From UHGV virus genome UHGV-0239954: a stretch of 12,704 bases of DNA. One strand, given 5' to 3'. Every line of letters begins with the position of its first letter. Position 1 is the first letter of the stretch. Origin of the DNA: a virus. Positions 1-12,704 of this stretch are shown here, in pieces. The position numbers and the translations under genes were made by a program. The notes beneath the pieces were generated by a model, which saw nothing but the letters and a program-made list of their open reading frames with translations, was not told the origin of the DNA and did no database searches.

Positions 1-1364
1 TCTTCCTTTCTTGATTCTTTATAAACAATTGCTGCTGATTTTGCATACCATGAGTCAAAAAACCATTCTGCTTCTGTTGATGGAATGAAGCTCTTTTCTC
101 TTTTTGCATGCGAATTTTGATCGGTATCGGTTTTAATATCATTGAACCAAAAATTTGCCGACTGATAATTATCCTTCTCGTATCTTTTTATACCATACGG
201 ACCTGCTAGTTTTTTAACTATTTTTAGAACTTGCTCTTTTCTTCTGGTGTTTATCTTTGAAAGATTTGTAGGATAAATAACATTAAGTAAAGCCGCATCG
301 GCTTCTCTGTAATGTTTATCTTTTTCCAGATAACCTGGGGATTCTCCCCCTAAATCAAGCTGTAACGTTATTCTTTCATAACCTTTATCTATGAGGTGGT
401 TCAACCTCGTTGTTGAAAGAGTTTCATCCAGTTCATTGACTTTAGCTTCGCGTAGTAAATCAGAGACAAAAACAGAGTCTTTCTTCGAGAGTAGGTTTGA
501 CAAACGTTCCAGTCCAGAGGTCACCAGTGCAACGGAAGATGTGTTTAATCGGGCATCTTCTTCCCATGCTCCGGAATCTTCCATAACATAGAAATTGGCT
601 TTATCCAGATAAGCAATCAGCAGCGCAACCGACTTTAATCGGTCACCTTTTTGCCAATCTTCAGCGTTAATAGTACCAGTGTTGATTGCTTGTATAAGGA
701 GATCAAGGTAAAGACCTAACGCATCATTTTGTTTATGGTTCCACAGCTGCGGCTTGCCTTCTTCCTGCACATCTGCCATCACGGGGGAGTTGCTGTCAAA
801 TCGGATATGCACAGCATTCATTTGCACGGGAACTCCATCCAGTCGTTTTGGGTTGCTAATGACGTCCTGCATCCGCTTAATCTGGTCGGGCGTAGACATA
901 TAATCCCACAGGGTGAGCAGAACCTTTTTTGCGGCTACACTATTTCCCTGATCTGATACTAATGCCATATAGCCCCATAAACTATCCCTCAACCAGACAG
1001 CATCATAGTGGGTTTGTGCCGCTGTTTTGTCATCTTCGAAAGTAGAAGCAAGAATAAACGTTCCCCAGGGTTTCTCCGTCAACGTTAACTTTCGTGTGTT
1101 TTCTGTTAATGTTAGCAATCCTTGAATTTCGTCTTTGGTATAGTGGCTCTTTATTTCATTTTGTAATTTGGCTGAGTGAATCAAAAGACGATAATTAGGA
1201 TACTTATCTGGATTTAACGATAAATAACTTTTATCTGTTGCTGCCCCCGTGGAATTAAGAATGTTAAATACAGATTCACTCGTCACTTCTGCCCCTGTCG
1301 CCTGGCATGTGCCGCACGAAAATATACCAGCGAGCAGAAGAGTTAATGCAGATTTCCCTTTCAT
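1..1364 (-). CDS. Secreted glycoside hydrolase family 15-like protein (glucoamylase/trehalase-like); 3' end truncated by window edge
   Basis: Uninterrupted minus-strand frame from ATG at 1364-1362 to position 1, translated by hand with no stop; absent from the ORF track because it has no stop in the window. N-terminus MKGKSALTLLLAGIFSCGTCQA resembles a signal or lipoprotein peptide. Motifs HYDAVWLRDS and DSGAWEED resemble the GH15 W-x-RDS and catalytic WEE motifs. Region is visibly AT-rich compared with the element to its right. An in-frame alternative ATG lies at 1376. Confidence 0.55.
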   Translation of the reverse strand, partial: MKGKSALTLLLAGIFSCGTCQATGAEVTSESVFNILNSTGAATDKSYLSLNPDKYPNYRLLIHSAKLQNEIKSHYTKDEIQGLLTLTENTRKLTLTEKPWGTFILASTFEDDKTAAQTHYDAVWLRDSLWGYMALVSDQGNSVAAKKVLLTLWDYMSTPDQIKRMQDVISNPKRLDGVPVQMNAVHIRFDSNSPVMADVQEEGKPQLWNHKQNDALGLYLDLLIQAINTGTINAEDWQKGDRLKSVALLIAYLDKANFYVMEDSGAWEEDARLNTSSVALVTSGLERLSNLLSKKDSVFVSDLLREAKVNELDETLSTTRLNHLIDKGYERITLQLDLGGESPGYLEKDKHYREADAALLNVIYPTNLSKINTRRKEQVLKIVKKLAGPYGIKRYEKDNYQSANFWFNDIKTDTDQNSHAKREKSFIPSTEAEWFFDSWYAKSAAIVYKESRKE

Positions 1365-1597: not shown

Positions 1598-1625
1598 TGG
1601 AGCGGGCGAAGGGAATCGAACCCTC
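1598..1625 (-). repeat. Partial tRNA-Gly 3' end (T-arm, 3' acceptor strand, CCA) = attachment-site repeat of an integrated element; not an intact tRNA
   Basis: Minus strand reads GAGGGTTCGATTCCCTTCGCCCGCTCCA: canonical T-loop GGTTCGATTCC, 7-nt acceptor 3' strand and CCA. This matches my recollection of the enterobacterial tRNA-Gly(CCC) glyU 3' end. The complementary 5' acceptor strand (GCGGGCG) and D/anticodon arms are absent from the adjacent ~90 nt, so only a ~28-nt fragment is present. An integrase gene starts 88 nt away. Confidence 0.6.
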
Positions 1626-1713
1626 ATAGCTAACCCATTGAATTGTGAACCAAAATAAGTAATCGCGGTACTTATCCCGGTAGTTGGTAGCGGTAGATTA
1701 CAAGGTAATTACC

Positions 1714-2940
1714 ATGCCAATCAAGAAGACTTCTTATCTTTATGCAAACAAAGATGGGATATTCATCTTTCAAATCTTTATCCCGGTGTACATGCGCCAC
1801 TTATGGCACGGGCGGCGCTCACTCAAGAAATCGACAGGCACGCGGGACATCATGCAAGCTCGCATATTCCGTGACCAATACTTATTAGAGTTCCGAAAGC
1901 TCCAGCTCATGATGAAACCGGATAACCCTATAAACCGGATTCATTCTGCTATTTCAGATCTTCACTTACTGGCGGGAATATCCAGCGACATTACCGCGCC
2001 CGTAACTACTCCAGCAGAACGAGGGAAACCAGCGTCGCCAAAATTGACAGATGTCAGTAAAGAATATGCAGAGCAATACAAAGATCGGCGCTCTTATTCC
2101 ACATTGAGTAAATCCGCTCGCGCTGTATCAGCATTCACTAAATCAACTAAGCGCCCAACAATTACAATAAACGGAATCGGGCGGCGGCTCGTCTCTGACT
2201 TTCTGAAAGCGAACCAAGATAAGTTTTCCCGGCAGACGCTGCAAAACTGGTTAACTTGCTTAGGTACGCTGTACGACTTCGCCCGGCGTAAATATGACAA
2301 TATCGCCCCTGATAATCCCTTTCACGGCCACAATCTGGAAGCCCGTCAGACAAACGAAAGTTACCAGCCGTTTGAACCGCACCAGCTACAGACATTAACA
2401 AAAAAGGCAGGTGACGAAATAAGGGATGTAATAATAATCGGGCTGTATTCCGGGATGCGTCTTGATGAAATAGCCAGCATTAAACGGGATGAGGTTGTCA
2501 CCATCGACGGCGTGCGGTGTTTCTATGTCAGTAAATCAAAAACAAAGGCGGGTATAAGGCATGTCCCTGTACACTCGCTGTTATTTGACATTGTTGATAA
2601 ATACCTCGCGCAAAACAGCGGGGAGTACCTGCTCCCCCAATCCAACAAAATTAAACGCGCGGATGGTAAACGTGGGCCGTGGTATTCTCAGACATTTACC
2701 CGCTTACGTCGCCGGGTACTACCAACAGCCACAGAGCGCCAGTGTTTCCACTCCCTGCGTGGTCACTTCATCACCTGCTTAGACCGGGCAGGTGTACCAG
2801 AACAGCGCATAGGAGCTATTACCGGGCATACAGAGAAAAAGGCAAAGACGGAAGCATTTAAAACGTACAGCCAAGGGGCTGGGATGAAAGAACTATCTGA
2901 ATACGTAGAGCTGGTAAGTTATCCAGAACTTGAATCATAA
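1714..2940 (+). CDS. int: Tyrosine recombinase / phage-type integrase
   Basis: ORF 1684-2940 in the track begins with TTG; first ATG is at 1714, preceded by AAGG 8 nt upstream. The C-terminal half has tyrosine recombinase hallmarks: conserved Arg in GMRLDE, H-x-x-R in FHSLRGH, and C-terminal Tyr candidates in KTY/SEYVEL. Position beside a tRNA-derived att site fits. Confidence 0.88.
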   Translation: MPIKKTSYLYANKDGIFIFQIFIPVYMRHLWHGRRSLKKSTGTRDIMQARIFRDQYLLEFRKLQLMMKPDNPINRIHSAISDLHLLAGISSDITAPVTTPAERGKPASPKLTDVSKEYAEQYKDRRSYSTLSKSARAVSAFTKSTKRPTITINGIGRRLVSDFLKANQDKFSRQTLQNWLTCLGTLYDFARRKYDNIAPDNPFHGHNLEARQTNESYQPFEPHQLQTLTKKAGDEIRDVIIIGLYSGMRLDEIASIKRDEVVTIDGVRCFYVSKSKTKAGIRHVPVHSLLFDIVDKYLAQNSGEYLLPQSNKIKRADGKRGPWYSQTFTRLRRRVLPTATERQCFHSLRGHFITCLDRAGVPEQRIGAITGHTEKKAKTEAFKTYSQGAGMKELSEYVELVSYPELES

Positions 2941-2942
2941 TT

Positions 2943-3371
2943 TCAGGCAGGGTAAATAATCCCCAGCCCGCGATACTGGCGGCGGTATTCTCTGACCAGA
3001 GCATCCGCCGTCGCCCTCGGCAGCTTCGCCATATGCCCGGTACGATAGCCACCCTCGGCAGAATTCGCTGCACGATGTACAACAGCCCGCACGCGCCCGG
3101 TTCTGTGGTCGTGGTCGAGGGTCGTGCTGCTGAACGCAACAGCCCGCCCGGTAACGGCACACCGTCGATACTGATAATTCCACAGAAAGCAACGCACCGC
3201 AGCCACGTCAGCACGGCGCAACTCCAGTCGCCCTGAACCATTCAACAGGAGGCGATACACATCGTCGAATGCAGCAGCGTTTCTAACGCGCTCAGCCAGC
3301 GGCATATTGCCAAGGAACTCCAGATAATCCCGCATTGCTTTTCTTAAAAGTTGGTCTGTCCGTGTAACCAT
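2943..3371 (-). CDS. Recombination endonuclease VII-like nuclease with degenerate zinc-binding site
   Basis: ATG at 3371 with GGAGA 9 nt upstream. Segment CAVTGRAVAFSSTTLDHDHRTGRVRAVVHRAAN matches the EndoVII signature C-x-x-C...DHDH-x-TG-x-VRG-LLC-x-x-CN as I recall it, but three of the four zinc-ligand cysteines are replaced (T, H, A). The catalytic DHDH and Asn are retained. Its stop lies 2 nt from the integrase stop, convergent. Confidence 0.6.
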   Translation of the reverse strand: MVTRTDQLLRKAMRDYLEFLGNMPLAERVRNAAAFDDVYRLLLNGSGRLELRRADVAAVRCFLWNYQYRRCAVTGRAVAFSSTTLDHDHRTGRVRAVVHRAANSAEGGYRTGHMAKLPRATADALVREYRRQYRGLGIIYPA

Positions 3372-3643: not shown

Positions 3644-4052
3644 AAGCATTCCTCTTTATATCGTTTGCTCTCGCTTCACTGGCTTGTTTAAGCGTCATTC
3701 CTTCGATAGCTATATCCAGCAGTTCCTTTTGCTTACCAGCCAATCGCAAGGCGCTGTCTCTCCAGCAAAGCAGAAAGAAGATTGTCAGCACCTGTTTACT
3801 CAATCCATCCAGAAGATCGCCAAGTCCTTGATCCAGCAGACAGGCACGCCATGCAGCAGCGTGCTGCGTCATAGCACCGACTATCGGGATAGGTGCGCCA
3901 AGCATCGTCGCAAGCTGACTCATAACACTATTAGCATCGCCCGGATGCAGCCGGGGAATAGTCATGCGGCCAGCCTGCGCCAACAGCTCGGCGTACCTCT
4001 GGCGACGTGGGTCATCACATGCCAGCGGTTTAATTGGCTTTTCATCAGCCAT
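3627..4052 (-). CDS. Hypothetical protein (141 aa)
   Basis: ATG at 4052 preceded by GGAGG 9 nt upstream; 17-nt overlap with the downstream gene. No confident family assignment. Confidence 0.55.
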   Translation of the reverse strand: MADEKPIKPLACDDPRRQRYAELLAQAGRMTIPRLHPGDANSVMSQLATMLGAPIPIVGAMTQHAAAWRACLLDQGLGDLLDGLSKQVLTIFFLLCWRDSALRLAGKQKELLDIAIEGMTLKQASEARANDIKRNAYGFDD

Positions 4053-4070
4053 ATATGGAACCTCCGAGGA

Positions 4071-4598
4071 TTAGGCAGCCTGCAACAAATCGGCTGGCGT
4101 TGAGGGATGGTATCTGGCTTTAGCTTTTAGATAGGCAGCACGCGCCGCCGCTTCGGTTGTGAACAAGCCAAGGTGATGGCGTACACCATTAACGCGAATG
4201 TAAGCCTCCCATTTACCAGAACAAGAATGACGGCTATATCCCTTCGCTTTGCGGTAGTTGTGCTGATTCTCCTGCGGTGTAACAGCGCGGAGGTTGCCCG
4301 GTCGATTATCGGCACGTACAGCGTTAATGTGGTCGATTTGCAGACCGTCAGGGATACCACCATTAGCAATGATGAAGGCCACGCGATGCGCATAAATCGA
4401 GTGCGTCCTGCCGTCGATGCGGACAGACACGCGCCGATACCCGGCGCTGTCCGTTGCGGTGTCAGCCAGTTCCCCGGCCTCAGCATAAATCCGCTTGTTG
4501 ATTCCAATTCGGTCTACTGCATGGAACAGGCGGCCAGTCTCCGCATCGTATCGAAATAAAGAGCGTAGCAGCTCAGGGGCGTAAGCATCATTAACCAT
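4071..4598 (-). CDS. HNH endonuclease with AP2 DNA-binding domain (phage homing-endonuclease-like)
   Basis: ATG at 4598 with GGAGGGG upstream. N-terminal YDAETGRLFH, HNH core IDHINAVRADNRPGNLRAVTPQENQHN and C-terminal AP2-like SGKWEAYIRVNGVRHHLGLFTTEAAARAAY match the HNH_3 + AP2 architecture common in phages. Confidence 0.85.
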   Translation of the reverse strand: MVNDAYAPELLRSLFRYDAETGRLFHAVDRIGINKRIYAEAGELADTATDSAGYRRVSVRIDGRTHSIYAHRVAFIIANGGIPDGLQIDHINAVRADNRPGNLRAVTPQENQHNYRKAKGYSRHSCSGKWEAYIRVNGVRHHLGLFTTEAAARAAYLKAKARYHPSTPADLLQAA

Positions 4599-4614
4599 GA
4601 CTCAGCCCCTCCAG

Positions 4615-5610
4615 TTACACAGCTTGTCGGAAATTGATAACGCAGTCAGGGCGGCGCAGTCCAACATTGAACAGGCGATATGAGTCCATCACCATCGTCA
4701 TTTCGCGCTCATCATCCCACTGGCGATTGATAACGCTCTGCGCTTCGACTGTCACAAGTACAGACGCAGGCCGGAACAGCGTCGCCCGCGTCAGCGCTTC
4801 CTCTGAGGTAACGTCATAATCAGCGCCCAGTTCATGCCCGGTAATAGCTTCCTGCGGGTAACTGTTCAGCTCAATGACTCGTACCCCAGCGACATAGCCA
4901 ACTCGACGCCATGCGTAATCGTTGCCACTATCCCGGCTGTAACGGACGTTCATCAGCTTCTTATGTTCCATCAGGATGCTGAACCAAGCCGGGTCGATAA
5001 GCAGTACCAGCTCGGCCACCGGAATATCTTTCTCAGTGAGAAAGCGATTAGCAGCCGCTTTTACGACGTGAGCCAATTCGTTTGCGGCGTCCTCTTCGCT
5101 CCCCGCTGTCAGGTCGAGCGATACAACGTTATCCGTTAGTGGGTTAAACGTTGGTTGCAGTGTCGGCGGCGGTACAAAGTCAGTCGCTTTGATTAGCTGG
5201 ATGGTGTGCGCTTCGTCGTAGAATTTAGCGTGAGCAGTACCCATATTGCGGCTCAGCTCTGCGCGAAAGGTGGGCGCTGTCCAGTCGTCCTGATAGTCAA
5301 TCGGAATGCGGATATAGCTCAGCGTATCCACAGAGATAATCAGCTTATCCGACTTAACAGCGGTAGGCTCCAGCGATTGCCCTGCGGTTCTGCCCTTCAC
5401 CTCCAGATCACCACTCAGGCGATCAATGCGGTATTGGTTGCTGGCTTTCAGCGGCCTGTATGTAGACAGCCCCTCTGCCAGAAATACGGATTTGGACTCT
5501 AAACGGGTCTGGACATCCCGGTCATAAGCCTCGATGTGAATATCATTGTCGGATTCCACCCCGCCATAATGTGGGCGAAACAGATCGGGACTGTACGAAG
5601 TATCAGTCAT
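4615..5610 (-). CDS. Major capsid protein-like (T7 gp10-like, HK97-fold family), 331 aa
   Basis: ORF 4615-5655; preferred start is ATG at 5610 with TAGGAG 8 nt upstream (the two upstream ATGs lack a well-spaced SD). Segments KLIISVDTLSYIRIPIDYQD, LTEKDIPVAELVLLIDPAWFSILME and RPASVLVTVEAQSVINRQWDDE align in order and spacing with T7 gp10A segments KVITIDGLLTADVLIYDIED, LTKNYVPAADRVFYCDPDSYSAILAA and HRSAVGTVKLRDLALERARRANFQ as I recall them. Length is similar to gp10A. Confidence 0.6.
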   Translation of the reverse strand: MTDTSYSPDLFRPHYGGVESDNDIHIEAYDRDVQTRLESKSVFLAEGLSTYRPLKASNQYRIDRLSGDLEVKGRTAGQSLEPTAVKSDKLIISVDTLSYIRIPIDYQDDWTAPTFRAELSRNMGTAHAKFYDEAHTIQLIKATDFVPPPTLQPTFNPLTDNVVSLDLTAGSEEDAANELAHVVKAAANRFLTEKDIPVAELVLLIDPAWFSILMEHKKLMNVRYSRDSGNDYAWRRVGYVAGVRVIELNSYPQEAITGHELGADYDVTSEEALTRATLFRPASVLVTVEAQSVINRQWDDEREMTMVMDSYRLFNVGLRRPDCVINFRQAV

Positions 5611-5669
5611 AAACAAAACTCCTACGTAGGTTGATGAAGCCCGCGCCATCGTCATGGCACAGACGTGCG

Positions 5670-5694
5670 GAATCCTCCCGCCGAGGCAGGATTC
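5670..5694 (-). promoter_or_regulatory. Stable stem-loop in the leader of the capsid gene (possible RNA processing or stabilising element)
   Basis: GAATCCTGCC...GGGAGGATTC inverted repeat (9 bp with one mismatch, 5-nt loop), about 60 nt upstream of the capsid start inside the only sizeable intergenic gap (5611-5808) of the operon. No U-tract follows, so it is not a typical intrinsic terminator. Confidence 0.35.
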
Positions 5695-5808
5695 AGAACG
5701 GTATCGATTAAAGGGATGAGGTGCCCCGAAATGGGCGTTTTGAGGCCAGAGCTGGCGCGGTTCTCAGAGGTTAGTGCGCGTGAAGTAAGGCGAACGTATT
5801 ACCTTGCA

Positions 5809-6222
5809 TTAGTGCGCACTCATACGCGCCATGTTCAACACCTTCCGCACAGAGGTTTCAGACACGCCAACCTTACTTGCAATGTAACGATTCTTCTGGC
5901 CTTTTGCAGAGCGCTCGATAATGTCAGCGCGTACTGCCTCAGTGATCACCTTGCGGGGTCTGGCTCGATTCTTCTCGTGCCGTTCACGTTCGCGCATCCG
6001 CTCGGCCATCTTCGGCGGCAGCACAGGGGAAAGCCCACGGCTAACGCCAGAGGTGCGGGTGTCGGACGTGGCAGCTCGGGCAACGATATAAACCACTTCG
6101 TCTGGATTGAAAACGTGCTGCACACGCTCAGGGTAAATGTGGTCGCATCTACCCAGCGGCAAGGCGAAATCCGGGCGCACGTCAGCGACACGCTCCACGG
6201 CATGGAAATTACAGGTACTCAT
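5809..6222 (-). CDS. Small DNA-binding protein with C-terminal Hin/resolvase-type HTH; possible small-terminase-like or regulatory protein
   Basis: ATG at 6222 with GAGG 6 nt upstream. C-terminus RARPRKVITEAVRADIIERSAKGQKNRYIASKVGVSETSVRKVL fits the GRPRK...IA...GVS..TV.R.L pattern of Hin/resolvase HTH domains. No resolvase catalytic domain is present. Confidence 0.6.
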   Translation of the reverse strand: MSTCNFHAVERVADVRPDFALPLGRCDHIYPERVQHVFNPDEVVYIVARAATSDTRTSGVSRGLSPVLPPKMAERMRERERHEKNRARPRKVITEAVRADIIERSAKGQKNRYIASKVGVSETSVRKVLNMARMSAH

Positions 6223-6361: not shown

Positions 6362-7048
6362 TTAGCGACCAGCACGTTTGCCAGCGGAGCGCTGCGCAAC
6401 CAGAGCGCGGTATTGAATGTCGTACTGGCGATGGCCGGGGCCATACCCTGATTGCTGCGCCCACTGCGAAAGCTGATCATACGCTGCAATAAACTCAGCA
6501 TGAGACATACCAACAGGTTGCGAGGCAGGCTGGCCGTATGGGTTCCCCTGTGATGGGACATAACCAGTCGCAGTGCCTGCGGCCATACGCTCTTGCAGAT
6601 AATGAACCGCCCGCTGCATCTGCGCAGGGTCGCCAGACATAACCATCCGTTCAAGGGTTGATTGCGTCCCGGCGTCGAGCGTGCCAGCGTACTGCAACAT
6701 CGCGTCAACTGTACCCTGCCCTAGCTGGCTTTCGACAGACTGGTGAAACTGCCCCATCAGCCCATGAAGTTCAGGAGTCAACTCAACAGTAGTGCCATCC
6801 TGTAATTGCAGTGTGTCGCCCACTTGTGCAGCAACATCAATCTGCTGGTCTTGCTGGTTGGCAAAGTTACTTTCGCTCCAGCTTTGATTAATGTTCGCTG
6901 GCTGCGTTTTCAGGAAATCAGCATCAGGTGTTGTCTGGTCGAATCGGCTAGCGCCGTTGTCAGCACCTACAGGTGCGGCCATGTACGGCGATTGCTGCGG
7001 CGCAGTATCAGCGCCCGAAAGATATGGATTAACATTCTGGTCAGCCAT
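6362..7048 (-). CDS. Acidic Gln-rich low-complexity protein; candidate capsid scaffolding protein
   Basis: ATG at 7048 with AGAGG 7 nt upstream; start overlaps the upstream stop (TAATG). Composition is Q/D/E/A/G-rich with no hydrophobic core pattern, and it sits upstream of the capsid gene, analogous to T7 gp9 upstream of gp10. Function is inference only. Confidence 0.6.
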   Translation of the reverse strand: MADQNVNPYLSGADTAPQQSPYMAAPVGADNGASRFDQTTPDADFLKTQPANINQSWSESNFANQQDQQIDVAAQVGDTLQLQDGTTVELTPELHGLMGQFHQSVESQLGQGTVDAMLQYAGTLDAGTQSTLERMVMSGDPAQMQRAVHYLQERMAAGTATGYVPSQGNPYGQPASQPVGMSHAEFIAAYDQLSQWAQQSGYGPGHRQYDIQYRALVAQRSAGKRAGR

Positions 7049-8098: not shown

Positions 8099-8271
8099 AC
8101 ATTAAACTCCGAATCAAAATTGATCTGGTCAGTAACCAGCGAATGAATCAGCGCAAGGCTGGATGCGGTATGTGTGCCCGACTTGCGGGCGTTGTCGTAC
8201 ATGAAGCGGGCTACACGTTGATATTTCTCCGGCAGCGTGGCGAACCATTGCCGGAACTGTTCGGGGGTCAT
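8095..8271 (-). CDS. Hypothetical small protein (58 aa), translationally coupled
   Basis: Not in the ORF track (under 60 aa). ATG at 8271 overlaps the stop of the upstream gene as ATGA, and its own stop overlaps the next start as ATGA. Sequence MTPEQFRQWFATLPEKYQRVARFMYDNARKSGTHTASSLALIHSLVTDQINFDSEFNV. Confidence 0.45.
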   Translation of the reverse strand: MTPEQFRQWFATLPEKYQRVARFMYDNARKSGTHTASSLALIHSLVTDQINFDSEFNV

Positions 8272-8477
8272 TGGTCGTCATCCTCCGGGAACACGTTGTT
8301 AAAGGTTGTATCAGGCGAGTCGGCGGCGTTCTGCTTGAGGAAGTTCACGCAGGATGACAACTCGGCAGCAGCCATGCGTGACTCTCCCGCCTCGTCCTCC
8401 TTAAGCCTGCGCGTCAACGCACCCAGCAGCAGGGTTTTTAGTTCCCATGCTCCGGCTTCAAATTCAGATTTCGTCAT
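8268..8477 (-). CDS. Hypothetical small acidic protein (69 aa)
   Basis: ATG at 8477 in an ATGA overlap with the upstream stop. Acidic C-terminus PEDDDQ. Confidence 0.5.
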   Translation of the reverse strand: MTKSEFEAGAWELKTLLLGALTRRLKEDEAGESRMAAAELSSCVNFLKQNAADSPDTTFNNVFPEDDDQ

Positions 8478-8948: not shown

Positions 8949-10838
8949 TCAGAGGAAGCGGGAGATGTAACCCCAATTGCAGTTTTCAGGGCGGTACAAC
9001 GCTGCCAGCTCATCAGGTACACCGGACGGCACCGGGGCAGAGTCGGCGTCATAGGTGATGGGGTCGCCATACAGAGCCAACGATGACCACAGCAGAAAAG
9101 CACGGGCAGGTTGACCGTCACGCCCGGCACGTCCGATCATCTGAACTAAATCGGGCAGGTCTTCGGGAACATAAGTGACAATTACGTTACGCACGCCAGA
9201 GATATCAGCCCCCAGCCCGAAGGCTTTAGTAGCAATCAGAACCGCGCCGGGCGTGCTGGCAAACCACGCAGCGTTAGCGTGACGCTGGTCGCGGCTCAGT
9301 CGCTCAACGTCAGAATGGTAAGGCCGGGCGCGGTCTCCCAGTTCGTTGAGATACGCATACAGCATCTTGATACTGTCCACCATCACCAGCGTCTTCTCAT
9401 CCAGCGGGAGGGCATCGACCAGACCAACGGCAGCCCGGCGCGTAGTTGCGCACTGCTGAACAGGAATAAGCTGGATGTTTTCACGGGCAGCACTGGCGCG
9501 GTAGGTGAGGAACTCGCCACGACAGCCAAGCTCTTTCATCAAGCCAGACTCATCACCTTTTCGCAGGGTCGCAGTAAACGCGCACCGCTGAGCATCCGGG
9601 AAGGCATTTTTCAGGGTGTGTTTCATTGCAGGGAAAGCGTCCCGGAACTCCCATTCATCAACGGTATGAACCTCGTCAATGATAAATCTGTCCACACCAG
9701 CGGCCATCAGCGCAGCCAGCACCTGATTGCCCGGCACCAGATGCTCAGGTGAAACTACGGCAACGTGGAAAGCGCCAGCAGCCAACCCCGCAAGCTGTTG
9801 CGCATTGCGTCGCCTCGGCAGCTTGTCGCCAAAGGCAACAGCGTGAACGCCAGTTTCTAGCAACTGCTGTAACACCTGCTGCTTGATGGTGTTTGTAGGC
9901 ACAACAATAACGGTCAGACCGTCATCAGAATCAGATTCAAATTGCAGGGCATAGGTGAATGCAGCCGTCTTTCCGTACCCGGTTGGCAGTACGGCCAATA
10001 CATCGCGGTCACGGGCAAATACGGCGGCAGCTACGTCCTGCTGGCCGGGTCTCCAGTCTCTGCCATCTAGCGGTGGTAACGGTACGAATGCCGGGCGGTC
10101 GCATTGCTCCAGCTCGCGGAACCTGTACGGCGCGGTAACCAGCGGCGGGATGGACGGCGGCAGGCCAGCACCCCCAACGTCACAATGCAGATTCAGCGTA
10201 TTGAATTTATCATCCGTGGGTTTCAGCTCACCGCACCACAACTGACGGAAAGCCGGGCAGTCACCCAGTCGCGTAAAGTCAGCATGGCGCATAGCTTCCA
10301 GCTTGCTCATGCCGCGACTGATACGACGCACGATCTTCTCATCGCAAATCAGAAACTCACGGCAGGCTTTGAGGAAGGCATTCTGCCCGGTTGTCGCTTC
10401 CGGGATGGAGTGCTCGCGCGGTTTAAGCGCAGCGTCATCAACGCGAACGCCGGGGAAATCTGGCGGCAGCGGCTCGGCGTACCGGGCAGGCTTTTTGTTT
10501 AGCCACATCTCCAGCTCAGCGCGGCGGCAGTGGATTGCATCGCCCGGCTGGATAATCTGGCGCAACCCGGCATCAGCGCGGCGGGAATGTCGCTTGCGGC
10601 CAATTCCATTCGCCTCTTTCCATTCACGGAACGACATAACTGAACCATCTGCATTGTAGAAATACTGCCCGGAAACGGTGTTAAGCGCTGCCTTCACTGG
10701 TCGCTGTTTAACAGGGCATAACTTGGAATGAGGTATAACGATCTTATCCGCAACCAGTTGCTGAGCATCCGCAGGCTCGGTGTTCAGCGGTTCGGCGTCA
10801 GCGGCCAGCGTAAGCAAGCGGTTTAAATTGGTTGGCAT
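8949..10838 (-). CDS. RecQ-family SF2 DNA helicase with ~275-aa N-terminal extension; putative replication protein of the element
   Basis: ATG at 10838 with GGAG upstream. Ordered helicase motifs match RecQ: RPGQQ...LPTGYGKTAAF (motifs 0/I), TVIVVPTNTIKQQV (Ia), FIIDEVH (II), FTATL (III), IATKAFGLGADISGVRNVIVTYVPEDLPDLVQMIGRAGRDG (V/VI). No RQC/HRDC region follows. The N-terminal part has no clear match apart from an excisionase-like AIHCRRAELEMWL segment. Confidence 0.88.
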   Translation of the reverse strand: MPTNLNRLLTLAADAEPLNTEPADAQQLVADKIVIPHSKLCPVKQRPVKAALNTVSGQYFYNADGSVMSFREWKEANGIGRKRHSRRADAGLRQIIQPGDAIHCRRAELEMWLNKKPARYAEPLPPDFPGVRVDDAALKPREHSIPEATTGQNAFLKACREFLICDEKIVRRISRGMSKLEAMRHADFTRLGDCPAFRQLWCGELKPTDDKFNTLNLHCDVGGAGLPPSIPPLVTAPYRFRELEQCDRPAFVPLPPLDGRDWRPGQQDVAAAVFARDRDVLAVLPTGYGKTAAFTYALQFESDSDDGLTVIVVPTNTIKQQVLQQLLETGVHAVAFGDKLPRRRNAQQLAGLAAGAFHVAVVSPEHLVPGNQVLAALMAAGVDRFIIDEVHTVDEWEFRDAFPAMKHTLKNAFPDAQRCAFTATLRKGDESGLMKELGCRGEFLTYRASAARENIQLIPVQQCATTRRAAVGLVDALPLDEKTLVMVDSIKMLYAYLNELGDRARPYHSDVERLSRDQRHANAAWFASTPGAVLIATKAFGLGADISGVRNVIVTYVPEDLPDLVQMIGRAGRDGQPARAFLLWSSLALYGDPITYDADSAPVPSGVPDELAALYRPENCNWGYISRFL

Positions 10839-10859: not shown

Positions 10860-11297
10860 TTAAATACTACGCGCCCAAGCTAAATCTTCGGGTGTCCGAC
10901 TTTCGATTAACGCTAACTGCCAGCGTAAGTAATCCTCATGTTCTTTGGTGTATCGGGGAATACCTATAGGATTTTTCACAGCGTCCGGGTTAGTCCTCGC
11001 GACTTCCCTGCAATCTCGGTCGAAAGCCCAGCGGGCAACTTCCACCGATTCGTAATCCGTAAATCGGTACGGCCTTGTGCGGGAACGTACACGCCAGACA
11101 ACTTGCCCTAATTCGTGGATGTATATGCCGCAAAGTTCATCCGGGCTTGGGTGATACAATGGCTCCCCATAATTCTGGCGCATGAACTTCACAAACTTTT
11201 GATTGCGGCGGGCACGCCGTGCTTTTTCGCGTCGCTCCTCGGCTTCATACTCTTTTTGAATGGCGGCACGGTCTACCGGGATAAGTGTTTTGCTCAT
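10860..11297 (-). CDS. Hypothetical protein (145 aa), first gene of the leftward operon
   Basis: ORF 10860-11474; preferred start is ATG at 11297 with GGAGA 9 nt upstream. The longer N-terminal extension would run through the iteron-like repeats. Basic N-terminal region (EERREKARRARRNQK); no family recognised. Confidence 0.55.
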   Translation of the reverse strand: MSKTLIPVDRAAIQKEYEAEERREKARRARRNQKFVKFMRQNYGEPLYHPSPDELCGIYIHELGQVVWRVRSRTRPYRFTDYESVEVARWAFDRDCREVARTNPDAVKNPIGIPRYTKEHEDYLRWQLALIESRTPEDLAWARSI

Positions 11298-11366
11298 ACA
11301 GTGATCTCCAGAAATTAATGTGAGTTTGGAACGGGGCGCAGGACGGAAGCGCCGGGAGTGTGGCAG

Positions 11367-11719
11367 TCTGTCCTCCTTAGTAGTTACCATCATTGCAATG
11401 GCGTCGGAGTTCTGTCTCTCTTTAGTAGTGATCTTCATCCAGTAATTTGGATTAAATGCAGACACGGCGGGCATTGCAGCGAGATGGAGAGTAGGCGGGC
11501 TTGCGGTTTCAGTCTGCCTTAGTACAAGTTTCTAGTGGTCGGTAGCCTTTCCCTTATTAGTAGCTCTCATTTATCCGGGGCTTGTCTTCCCACACAGTAG
11601 CCGTCTTCTAAAGCAACCACACCACAATCCACTACTGGCAAGGAGTTAGCAGACACGGTGATGTAGGCTACTCAAGTGTGGATTTGTAGGCGTTTTATAG
11701 TATCTGTCCTTCTTATTAG
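11367..11719. repeat. Iteron-like direct repeats (consensus about TCTGTCCTYCTTAGTAG), candidate origin or operator array
   Basis: Copies at 11367-11383, 11411-11428 and 11703-11719, with diverged copies at 11513-11525, 11546-11563 and 11581-11600. All are in the same orientation with irregular spacing, immediately upstream of the operon and next to an AT-rich tract (about 11725-11830). Confidence 0.5.
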
Positions 11720-11831
11720 ACACCTTTAAATTTCATTAATAAATACAGTTAGTTAAACGGTTATCTTTATTACTTATAAATTTCACAGATCAATAAATTA
11801 AAATTGATCGGAATTATCAGCTTTAATTTTC

Positions 11832-11851
11832 TTGACAGCTATTTGTATAAT
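11832..11851 (+). promoter_or_regulatory. Promoter-like hexamers TTGACA / TATAAT (non-canonical 8-bp spacing)
   Basis: TTGACA at 11832-11837 and TATAAT at 11846-11851 are perfect consensus hexamers but too close to act as one sigma70 promoter. Each could pair with a weaker partner. No plus-strand ORF follows. Confidence 0.2.
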
Positions 11852-12029
11852 GGTTTTAAGAAGTTGTATCGGAGTGAGCGACTGGCAGTGAGCGTAGCGA
11901 ACGATAAGCCAGTCGGCGAAGAACGAAGAGTATGAGATGACTTGTCATCGAATACGATGAGTGATTGAGCGGTACGAACGGAGATACGCTGTATAACAGT
12001 TAGAACAGTTAACAAGCTGATTAATGCTT

Positions 12030-12194
12030 TCAATGATTATCTGAATCAGTGTTATCAATTCCGAAATAACTCTTCCTCTCCTGTATTGATTCAATCATTT
12101 CTTTCATTTCAAGAATCACTACCAGCTCAGCTAATAACCGTCTCAGTTCAACATTTGAATCATTAGCACGACACTTATTTTCTGAGTATTCCAT
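12030..12194 (-). CDS. Hypothetical small protein (54 aa)
   Basis: Not in the ORF track (under 60 aa). ATG at 12194 preceded by GGGAG 8 nt upstream. Sequence MEYSENKCRANDSNVELRRLLAELVVILEMKEMIESIQERKSYFGIDNTDSDNH. Lies between the GC-rich structured region and the iteron region. Confidence 0.3.
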   Translation of the reverse strand: MEYSENKCRANDSNVELRRLLAELVVILEMKEMIESIQERKSYFGIDNTDSDNH

Positions 12195-12299
12195 ACGGTC
12201 AACTCCCTACGGTATAAGTCCATTCCAATCCGTTCACAGATTACATTGCTGAATGATCATCAGACAAGTGGCAGTCATCATCACCAAGTTAGAGTCGTC

Positions 12300-12600
12300 T
12301 CGCTACATATCCCCGCCGGATTGCCAGCGCGGCTAACACGGTTGTGAGGAGCGCCGAGCATCACAGCGGACGCAGGCCGATGAACGAGCCGTAGGTGAGT
12401 GAAAGCGGACTCGCGGACGCGAGAAGCGCAGCAGCAGGCGGCGACTGATAAACGAGCCAGACAGGTGAGTGCAAGCAGGCGTAAGCACTGCACCGTTGAG
12501 AGGTGTGGAGACGGCGGAACGTCTCCGCGTTAGGGAGGTGGATTTGGGGAGGATGTGCAAGGCACACCTCGCTCCACCCACGGGGTGTCGGTGGGTAGGG
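12300..12600. ncRNA. GC-rich structured non-coding region with paired direct repeats and hairpins (candidate regulatory RNA or leader)
   Basis: All three plus-strand frames contain stops; the minus-strand ORFs overlap in multiple frames and have R/S/P-rich translations. Two ~28-nt direct repeats (12369-12396 GATGAACGAGCCGTAGGTGAGTGAAAGC; 12437-12466 GATAAACGAGCCAGACAGGTGAGTGCAAGC). Perfect hairpin GGAGACG-GCGGAA-CGTCTCC at 12498-12517. Further stems at 12453-12483 and 12563-12587. Confidence 0.25.
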
Positions 12601-12704
12601 GTATAACGCTAATTGGTTAAGTGTACACATGTACGCTGAAATCATTAAAAGCCTATAGAAACAGCATGTAACCCAGCACCACGACATAACCAATTATCGT
12701 TGAA

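Follow-up and report, generated by a model that had tools for sequence, protein, structure and literature searches.

The 28 nucleotides at positions 1598–1625 of the window, by which the whole stretch of 12,704 nucleotides analysed here is meant, are with a probability of about 93% the 3' end of the tRNA-Gly(CCC) gene glyU, displaced by the integration of a 14.5-kb island in E. coli. Taken by itself, such an att fragment is the textbook mechanism and an ordinary scar in a tDNA. It fixes the left boundary of the island to the nucleotide and predicts the place of its other end. The main interest lies in the island delimited in this way, which carries head genes of the type found in virulent podophages together with variable, possibly defence-related genes beside a tRNA gene, and which is nearly unchanged between genera.

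On the plus strand the fragment reads TGGAGCGGGCGAAGGGAATCGAACCCTC; in reverse complement this equals the last 28 nucleotides of E. coli glyU exactly (28 of 28), the intact copy at 36987–37060 of a related genome (L001) serving as the reference. Compared with this gene, the minus strand contains the CCA at 1598–1600, the discriminator at 1601, the 3' strand of the acceptor stem at 1602–1608, the 3' strand of the T-stem at 1609–1613, the T-loop at 1614–1620, and the 5' strand of the T-stem at 1621–1625. The block reaches from the T-stem through the tRNA 3' end, as in attachment sites of the T-stem/T-loop class. It occurs once in the window and in none of 200 dinucleotide-preserving shuffles. 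Identity to the tRNA ends at 1625, and positions 1626–1713 are island DNA in a three-way alignment of the junctions (A1). ARAGORN called no tRNA over the whole window, and the sole match of Rfam at E ≤ 1 was a T-arm-sized one of 15 nucleotides. The preliminary description had seen only a T-arm, a 3' acceptor strand, and a CCA at this place, and this was borne out by the comparison with glyU; the complete tRNA gene at 1598–1690 which would speak against it is not predicted by ARAGORN. It had also described the 3' end of the fragment as pointing away from the integrase gene int, and this is the case: as the sense strand of the tRNA is the minus strand, the CCA faces left, opposite to int, which starts with its ATG at 1714 on the plus strand. 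The D-arm-like stretch CCATTGAA within 1626–1660 was considered as leftover tRNA homology and rejected, since ARAGORN and Rfam see nothing there and the Rosenbergiella copy of the island lacks it; the resemblance is treated as chance. A second copy of the repeat was sought inside the window and none was found. A 14-nt inverted match between 1670–1683 and 11273–11286 was discarded as a repeat, its occurrence being close to chance expectation for 12.7 kb.

The second copy of the repeat lies outside the window, and the link to it depends on a contig which is identical to the window across its full length. This contig (L016; Logan ERR9767979 contig 80, 119.6 kb) was retrieved via a look-up with the helicase protein of the island and matches all 12,704 bases of the window at 100.000% identity with no mismatch or gap. 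It contains an intact tRNA-Gly(CCC) gene at 4610–4683, equivalent to window positions 16156–16229 on the minus strand, 3.45 kb past the right edge. The 28-nt core is present in the contig in exactly two direct copies 14,558 bp apart, the tRNA-distal one being the fragment at window positions 1598–1625 (minus strand) and the other one lying at 4656–4683. The intact gene has the same orientation as the fragment, so that an intact tRNA gene and a co-oriented displaced 3' fragment are found together as in the Islander/TIGER elements, a combination which is the standard signature of an island (PMC4383910). It had been considered that the intact tRNA gene might lie past the right window edge with int at the far end, a reading that stands or falls with a second repeat on the contig; both the gene and the repeat are found to the right in the window-identical contig. 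Uninterrupted sites are available as well. In 2,965 complete E. coli genomes the flank continues to the equivalent of window position 1625/1628 and then runs straight into an intact tRNA-Gly gene, which is the uninterrupted attB of the Islander/TIGER scheme, and one of these empty sites (L023) was included in alignment A1. In this alignment attB consists of the left half of the window junction and the right half of the tRNA-proximal junction of the contig, joined around the 28-nt core. Because an intact glyU is present in the window-identical contig and thousands of uninterrupted sites exist, the fragment is read as the displaced 3' end of the chromosomal glyU.

The DNA to the left of the fragment is the native flank. 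Positions 1–1364 (minus strand) contain the N-terminal 454 codons of ygeQ, a gene for a GH15/glucoamylase-like protein with its start codon at 1364, as seen from the RefSeq annotation of L001, L002, and L023; the called 536-amino-acid ygeQ gene in L016 and L028 gives a faint Glyco_hydro_15 match. Positions 1365–1597 are the native intergenic spacer downstream of glyU, which is continuous with the intact tRNA-Gly gene in the 2,965 E. coli genomes. A stretch of 73 nucleotides in this spacer (about 1512–1584) is present in the window and in L002 and missing from strain 5735 and many K-12-like genomes; this indel adjoining the att site is a strain polymorphism. The G+C content is 34–46% in the flank and 46–60% from 1626 onward. 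The window DNA left of 1625 is ordinary E. coli chromosome, and from 1626 it is foreign. The gene ygeQ is known as the glucoamylase-like terminal gene of the type III secretion island ETT2, which is inserted beside glyU (PMC2808357). The earlier impression that the AT-rich GH15-like gene looks acquired is supported by this membership in a glyU-associated island, but with respect to the island studied here the gene is native flank.

The position of int was followed across the family of related islands. At glyU of other E. coli these are L002 and L003, at thrW of E. coli L004, at tRNA-Leu(CAA) loci in Trabulsiella and Enterobacter (L005, L006, L008, and L009) and an IMG/VR provirus (L011), and at tRNA-Gly(CCC) loci in Enterobacter and Rosenbergiella (L007 and L010), to which eight more contigs with an identical helicase and an intact tRNA-Gly gene are added (L012–L015 and L017–L020). 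At every locus with both ends present, about 18 including strain 5735 and with Gly, Thr, and Leu tRNA genes as targets, int is found at the end distal to the tRNA gene. The order of tRNA gene, cargo, serine recombinase, helicase, capsid, HNH endonuclease, endonuclease VII, inward-directed int, and a repeat of 25–34 nt is constant at Gly(CCC), Thr(CGT), and Leu(CAA) tRNA genes. The repeat comprises the segment from the T-arm to the CCA and lies 14.4–15.1 kb from the intact tRNA gene, immediately outside the start of int. Exceptions are L003, which has lost the distal repeat beside an IS1, the Rosenbergiella locus L010 (4636–11738), in which an internal deletion leaves an island of 7 kb with both att cores intact, and strain 5735 (L001), where the island's own repeat is 19.0 kb away from the tRNA gene because the repeat nearest to this gene belongs to a second element, called element A below. 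In the shortened Rosenbergiella island int directly adjoins the tRNA-proximal part, which extends through the first 177 codons of the helicase.

The integrase identical to that of the window was found in ten places in which an unrelated flank is followed by the 28-nt core, the same 88-nt arm, and int, with at least five different left flanks and no tRNA gene within 5 kb. The same island occurs with one to two mismatches in 11.1 kb in unrelated chromosomal contexts, with homology beginning exactly at 1598, and this implies that it was spread horizontally in recent times. Throughout the family the integrases can be aligned from end to end, and they group by target, with identities to the window integrase of 65–100% for Gly, 37% for Thr, and 38–39% for Leu targets. 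The capsid protein is 93–100% identical throughout the family and does not group by target tRNA. As the integrase tracks the target and the serine recombinase does not, the integrase is the determinant of specificity, and its position is inherited with the int-attP module.

The tRNA-distal int is a trait of this family and not an anomaly or a sign of rearrangement. The preliminary description had set it apart from the common arrangement of tRNA gene and integrase, correctly in that int is far from the tRNA gene, but the layout is constant across the family and its three targets and gives no signal of rearrangement. Its placing of int at the ‘repeat-distal end’ agrees with its own reasoning when the intact tRNA gene is meant, but not for the repeat in the window, from which int is only 88 nt away. 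In enterobacterial islands with P4-type integrases, int follows the intact tRNA gene directly, and it is at the tRNA-proximal end also in two other elements at these hotspots, element A in L001 and a P4-like element in L004. Judged from these, the int-distal layout is the less familiar of the two possible ones. The literature places int genes near one end of an integrative element and is no more specific than this (PMC7192596).

It was also suggested that the fragment could mark a tandem array of islands at a tRNA hotspot. It would then be an internal junction shared by two elements, and int would belong to the ‘next’ element in a tRNA-proximal layout. That glyU is a hotspot is well founded. 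ETT2 including ygeQ is a known island beside this gene (PMC2808357), tandem arrays at tDNAs are documented (PMC4383910, PMC7192596) and form a recognised class in Islander (PMC4383910), and according to the published account either of the restored cores may receive a second element (PMC7192596). Relatives of the window do stack elements on this very fragment. The closest complete genome, that of strain 5735 with 99.96% identity, contains element A, which has a length of 4.46 kb and consists of a gene for a 544-amino-acid tyrosine integrase on the tRNA side, a DUF4145 protein gene, two unknown genes, and a 23-nt glyU core. Its two copies (L001 13520–18001 and 32533–37014) are 100% identical; one is inserted in the intact tRNA gene, in the gap between island and glyU, and the other exactly in the displaced fragment, in the gap between the ygeQ flank and int. 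Back-to-back integrases are seen in L004, where a P4-like satellite follows beyond the thrW fragment, and in L024, where a 664-amino-acid integrase is back-to-back with int. On the window-identical contig, however, the island is single, with nothing between the fragment and the native flank, the same flank which abuts intact glyU in thousands of genomes, and no further glyU fragment is present leftward within the window. Moreover, the island to which int belongs is the one to its right: int moves with this island into at least five unrelated flanks, matches the target tRNA across the family, and faces into the island, which ends at the intact tRNA gene. While the hotspot stands, a tandem array is contradicted as the explanation of the int position, and an internal array junction is an improbable reading of the fragment. 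The displaced fragment nevertheless stays ‘live’, as the second element integrated there in strain 5735 demonstrates, and arrays or hybrid islands can arise from it at glyU beside ETT2.

The product of int (1714–2940, plus strand), which is read from the core into the island, is a tyrosine integrase of 408 amino acids (Pfam Phage_integrase, PF00589, E 7.9e-10; PHROG 1, E 1.6e-32). Its gene starts 88 nt from the core, which puts a tyrosine integrase inside the element near its terminus as in the Islander/TIGER elements. The catalytic set is complete in the translation, with R249, the lysine hairpin KTKAGIRHVPV at 276–286, H346-x-x-R349, H372, and Y385. This integrase is present in just two of 5,426 complete E. 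coli genomes. Relatives were not found in IMG/VR, GenBank phages gave distant matches only (up to about 32% identity over part of the protein), and the sequences of the PDB gave no match.

Between core and int lies the arm of the island at 1626–1713 (plus strand), with clustered GCGGTA/GGTAG repeats at 1664–1697 as candidate arm-type sites for the integrase; it presumably also serves as promoter and leader of int, although no match to a sigma-70 consensus promoter was found in its 88 nt. Escherichia, Enterobacter, and Rosenbergiella all keep this arm beside the core, and the unrelated flanks with which it is found number at least five. Conserved in three genera, the distal arm has the form of core followed by ATAGCTAACCCATTGAATTGTGAACC...CGCGGTAC..CCGGTAG..GGTAGCGGTAG...ATG of int, and the proximal arm, likewise conserved in three genera, that of ...GGGTAARTAGCGGTACTTTGGTCACAT...AAGGCTTTTAAWGGGC followed by the core. 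Repeats of the GCGGTA type are found on both arms, with a GCGGTAC copy in the arm opposite int. In L002, a divergent island of the Gly type, both arms have another 11-mer, GGCTGTACCTG, similarly far from the core. These arm repeats would fit arm-type binding sites for each cognate integrase. In the predicted attP, the right-end arm ...AAGGCTTTTAATGGGC and then ATAGCTAACCC... lie on either side of the 28-nt core. A search of IMG/VR and JGI metagenome contigs for the exact 42-nt pattern of the attP junction gave no match and no excised circle, and no excisionase was identified in the island. We infer current mobility of the island only from its near-identical copies in different genera.

From these features the following course of integration can be proposed. 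The excised circle of the island would carry an attP in which the 28-nt segment from the T-arm to the CCA is present as an identical copy, and the island's own tyrosine integrase would exchange the strands within this block of identity, the crossover likely taking place in the T-loop with the arms of the T-stem as core-type sites. The copy brought by the island would complete a fully functional glyU at the right, far junction, and the chromosomal copy would remain behind at the left junction, with the ygeQ flank on one side and int on the other. There the fragment would have no function as a tRNA; it would serve as att core for excision, and other elements specific for glyU could still use it as a target. 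In this family of islands attP would be situated just upstream of int in divergent orientation, and int would therefore always come to lie next to the displaced fragment after integration, with the tRNA gene at the far end.

The island contains a second recombinase, a serine recombinase of the invertase/resolvase type with 207 amino acids, encoded just past the right window edge, and one could assume that this enzyme inserts the island at glyU and that int is a mere passenger beside the fragment. The Resolvase-family gene is indeed conserved in its position near the tRNA-proximal part. Its identity, however, ignores the target, with 98% in a Leu-type island and 27% in another Gly-type one, where that of the integrase follows it; it is of the small type and not a large serine integrase, and as far as known tDNAs are targeted by tyrosine integrases only (PMC4383910). 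An insertion by the serine recombinase is accordingly very improbable. Least probable, with next to no weight left, is a decayed tRNA pseudogene, that is, a glyU cut by deletion or illegitimate insertion with loss of the tRNA gene, which would agree with the window itself showing a 3' fragment and no intact tRNA gene, but not with the sequence-identical intact glyU 14.5 kb away in L016, its presence at every related locus examined, and the precise 28-nt direct repeat with conserved island ends, which are the signature of site-specific recombination.

Integration of the island into glyU by its own integrase is hence the preferred reading, and by it the gene content of the island can be delimited. 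The island-specific DNA has a length of 14,530 bp and reaches the equivalent of window position 16155. All genes except int are co-oriented with the tRNA gene on the minus strand, and int reads inward from the att core. Starting from the tRNA gene, the order is cargo, serine recombinase, about 1.4 kb of non-coding DNA (11298–12704 in the window), an ORF of 145 amino acids, a RecQ-like DEAD-box helicase (8949–10838, minus strand), several small ORFs including a TerS-like one, a scaffold-like protein (6362–7048, minus strand), and an HTH protein, followed by the major capsid protein (4615–5610, minus strand), an HNH endonuclease (4071–4598, minus strand; PHROG 99, E 1.1e-50), two unknowns, an endonuclease VII-like protein (2943–3371, minus strand), and int. 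The capsid gene is recognised by the major head protein profile PHROG 267 (E 6.9e-70). Its product is about 55% identical to capsid proteins of the Bonnellvirus phages Lidtsur, glasur, and J8-65 (Autographivirales) and matches 761 records of phages of the T7 supergroup. An ORF of 69 amino acids (8268–8477, minus strand) is TerS-like as judged from its alignment to the N-terminus of the small terminase of Lidtsur, with 48% identity over 44 amino acids (pairwise E 4e-6), and gives a sub-threshold match to Pfam DNA_Packaging_2. The scaffold-like protein of 228 amino acids matches the C-terminal part of the PHROG scaffold profile only; this profile is its support, as pairwise comparison with the 411-amino-acid scaffold of Lidtsur is not significant (E 0.69). 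In the 20 island ORFs scanned with Pfam, PHROG, and NCBIfam no portal, protease, large terminase, head-tail connector, or tail gene was detected.

Several further features were observed along the island. Upstream of the long block of co-oriented genes, the non-coding region contains five copies of a motif of about 16–20 nt at 11366–11735 on the minus strand (ACTACTAAGGAGGACAGA, ACTACTAAAGAGAGACAGA, TGTACTAAGGCAGAC, GCTACTAATAAGGGAAAGG, and GTCTAATAAGAAGGACAGA), which superficially resemble T3/T7 promoters. Iterons and promoters are both possibilities for them. A promoter for a T7-like RNA polymerase of a helper phage was considered and found unsupported for the Bonnellvirus Lidtsur, the genome of which does not contain the motif. 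An unannotated G+C-rich block of 284 bp (12421–12704) lies downstream of the gene for the serine recombinase. Its identity is 100% with the thrW-type island L004 and 99.6% with L007, the neighbouring DNA reaching only 83–94%. The block contains an 18-nt inverted repeat (12605–12622 and 12684–12701) and may represent a conserved site acting in cis or else an RNA. The slot between the tRNA gene and the serine recombinase gene has a variable cargo (L016 4684–7078, L004 19398–20537, L002 24193–26358, and L020 5996–6496), and islands which are otherwise similar differ there in having a TIR-domain protein, DUF3800, DUF1643, or small unknown ORFs. This slot may be a hotspot for defence genes. Outside the window, L016 6586–6639 matches Lidtsur (L022) 40900–40953 with 76% identity over 54 G+C-rich nucleotides (E 0.001), on the Lidtsur side close to the presumed genome end, and this could be the mimic of a packaging signal or chance. 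In L018 (13474–20260, GCA_000319555.1) the capsid region is apparently duplicated in tandem, the equivalent of window positions 4006–5967 occurring twice with two ORFs of 314 amino acids.

The presence of capsid, scaffold-like, and TerS-like genes in an element in which none for portal, large terminase, or tail was detected suggests that the island is a satellite which depends on virulent T7-type phages as helpers. As counted by the capsid gene, the family is present in 59 of 5,426 complete E. coli genomes (about 1%) with one chromosomal copy each, and the island has about one third of the size of the 42-kb phage genome of its candidate helper. Rather tentatively, and with the odds against it, one might go further and see here an undescribed family of integrative satellites of about 14.5 kb which live on virulent Bonnellvirus-like Autographivirales in Enterobacteriaceae. 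They would form their own, probably smaller capsids from their own major capsid protein and the shortened scaffold, redirect packaging by the TerS-like protein, and use portal, large terminase, and tail of the helper, with an integrase clade which in diversifying has taken up Gly, Thr, and Leu tRNA genes as targets and keeps int beside the displaced fragment. In the literature searched, the coverage of which was incomplete, no description of the island family or of a glyU integrase island was found. If the island is in fact a helper-dependent satellite of T7-like phages, this would matter for phage therapy that uses such phages and for the diversity of satellites.

Among known systems the island is closest in its integration to the Islander/TIGER tDNA elements such as P4, CP4-57, and many pathogenicity islands. 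It shares with them a tyrosine integrase which targets a tRNA gene in its 3' part, the restoration of this gene, a co-oriented 3' fragment at the far end, a block of identity in the region of the T-stem, and uninterrupted sites in relatives. It differs from the P4-type enterobacterial islands in that int is beside the displaced fragment and diverges from it. With P4 and P4-like satellites it has in common the small size (11–15 kb, about one third of that of the candidate helper), integration at tRNA genes, occurrence in about 1% of genomes, and a variable cargo, and at thrW in L004 a P4-like element stands in tandem with the island. In contrast to P4, no P4-type integrase, alpha primase, Psu, Sid, or Delta is found among the 20 ORFs with Pfam, PHROG, and NCBIfam, the helicase is RecQ/DEAD-like, and the island's own capsid, scaffold-like, and TerS-like genes are related to Autographivirales and not to P2-like phages. 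The cf-PICIs are likewise chromosomal islands with their own major capsid protein and an HNH endonuclease and no tail genes. They possess, however, a full set for head formation and packaging (portal, protease, TerS, TerL, and connectors), whereas the present island has no portal, protease, TerL, or connectors and its capsid is of the T7-supergroup type. The likeness to PLE of Vibrio cholerae, the satellite of the virulent phage ICP1, is conceptual only and lies in an integrated island of about 15–18 kb living, or in the present case possibly living, on a virulent phage which does not itself integrate. The recombinase of PLE is a large serine recombinase, and PLE encodes no major capsid protein of its own.
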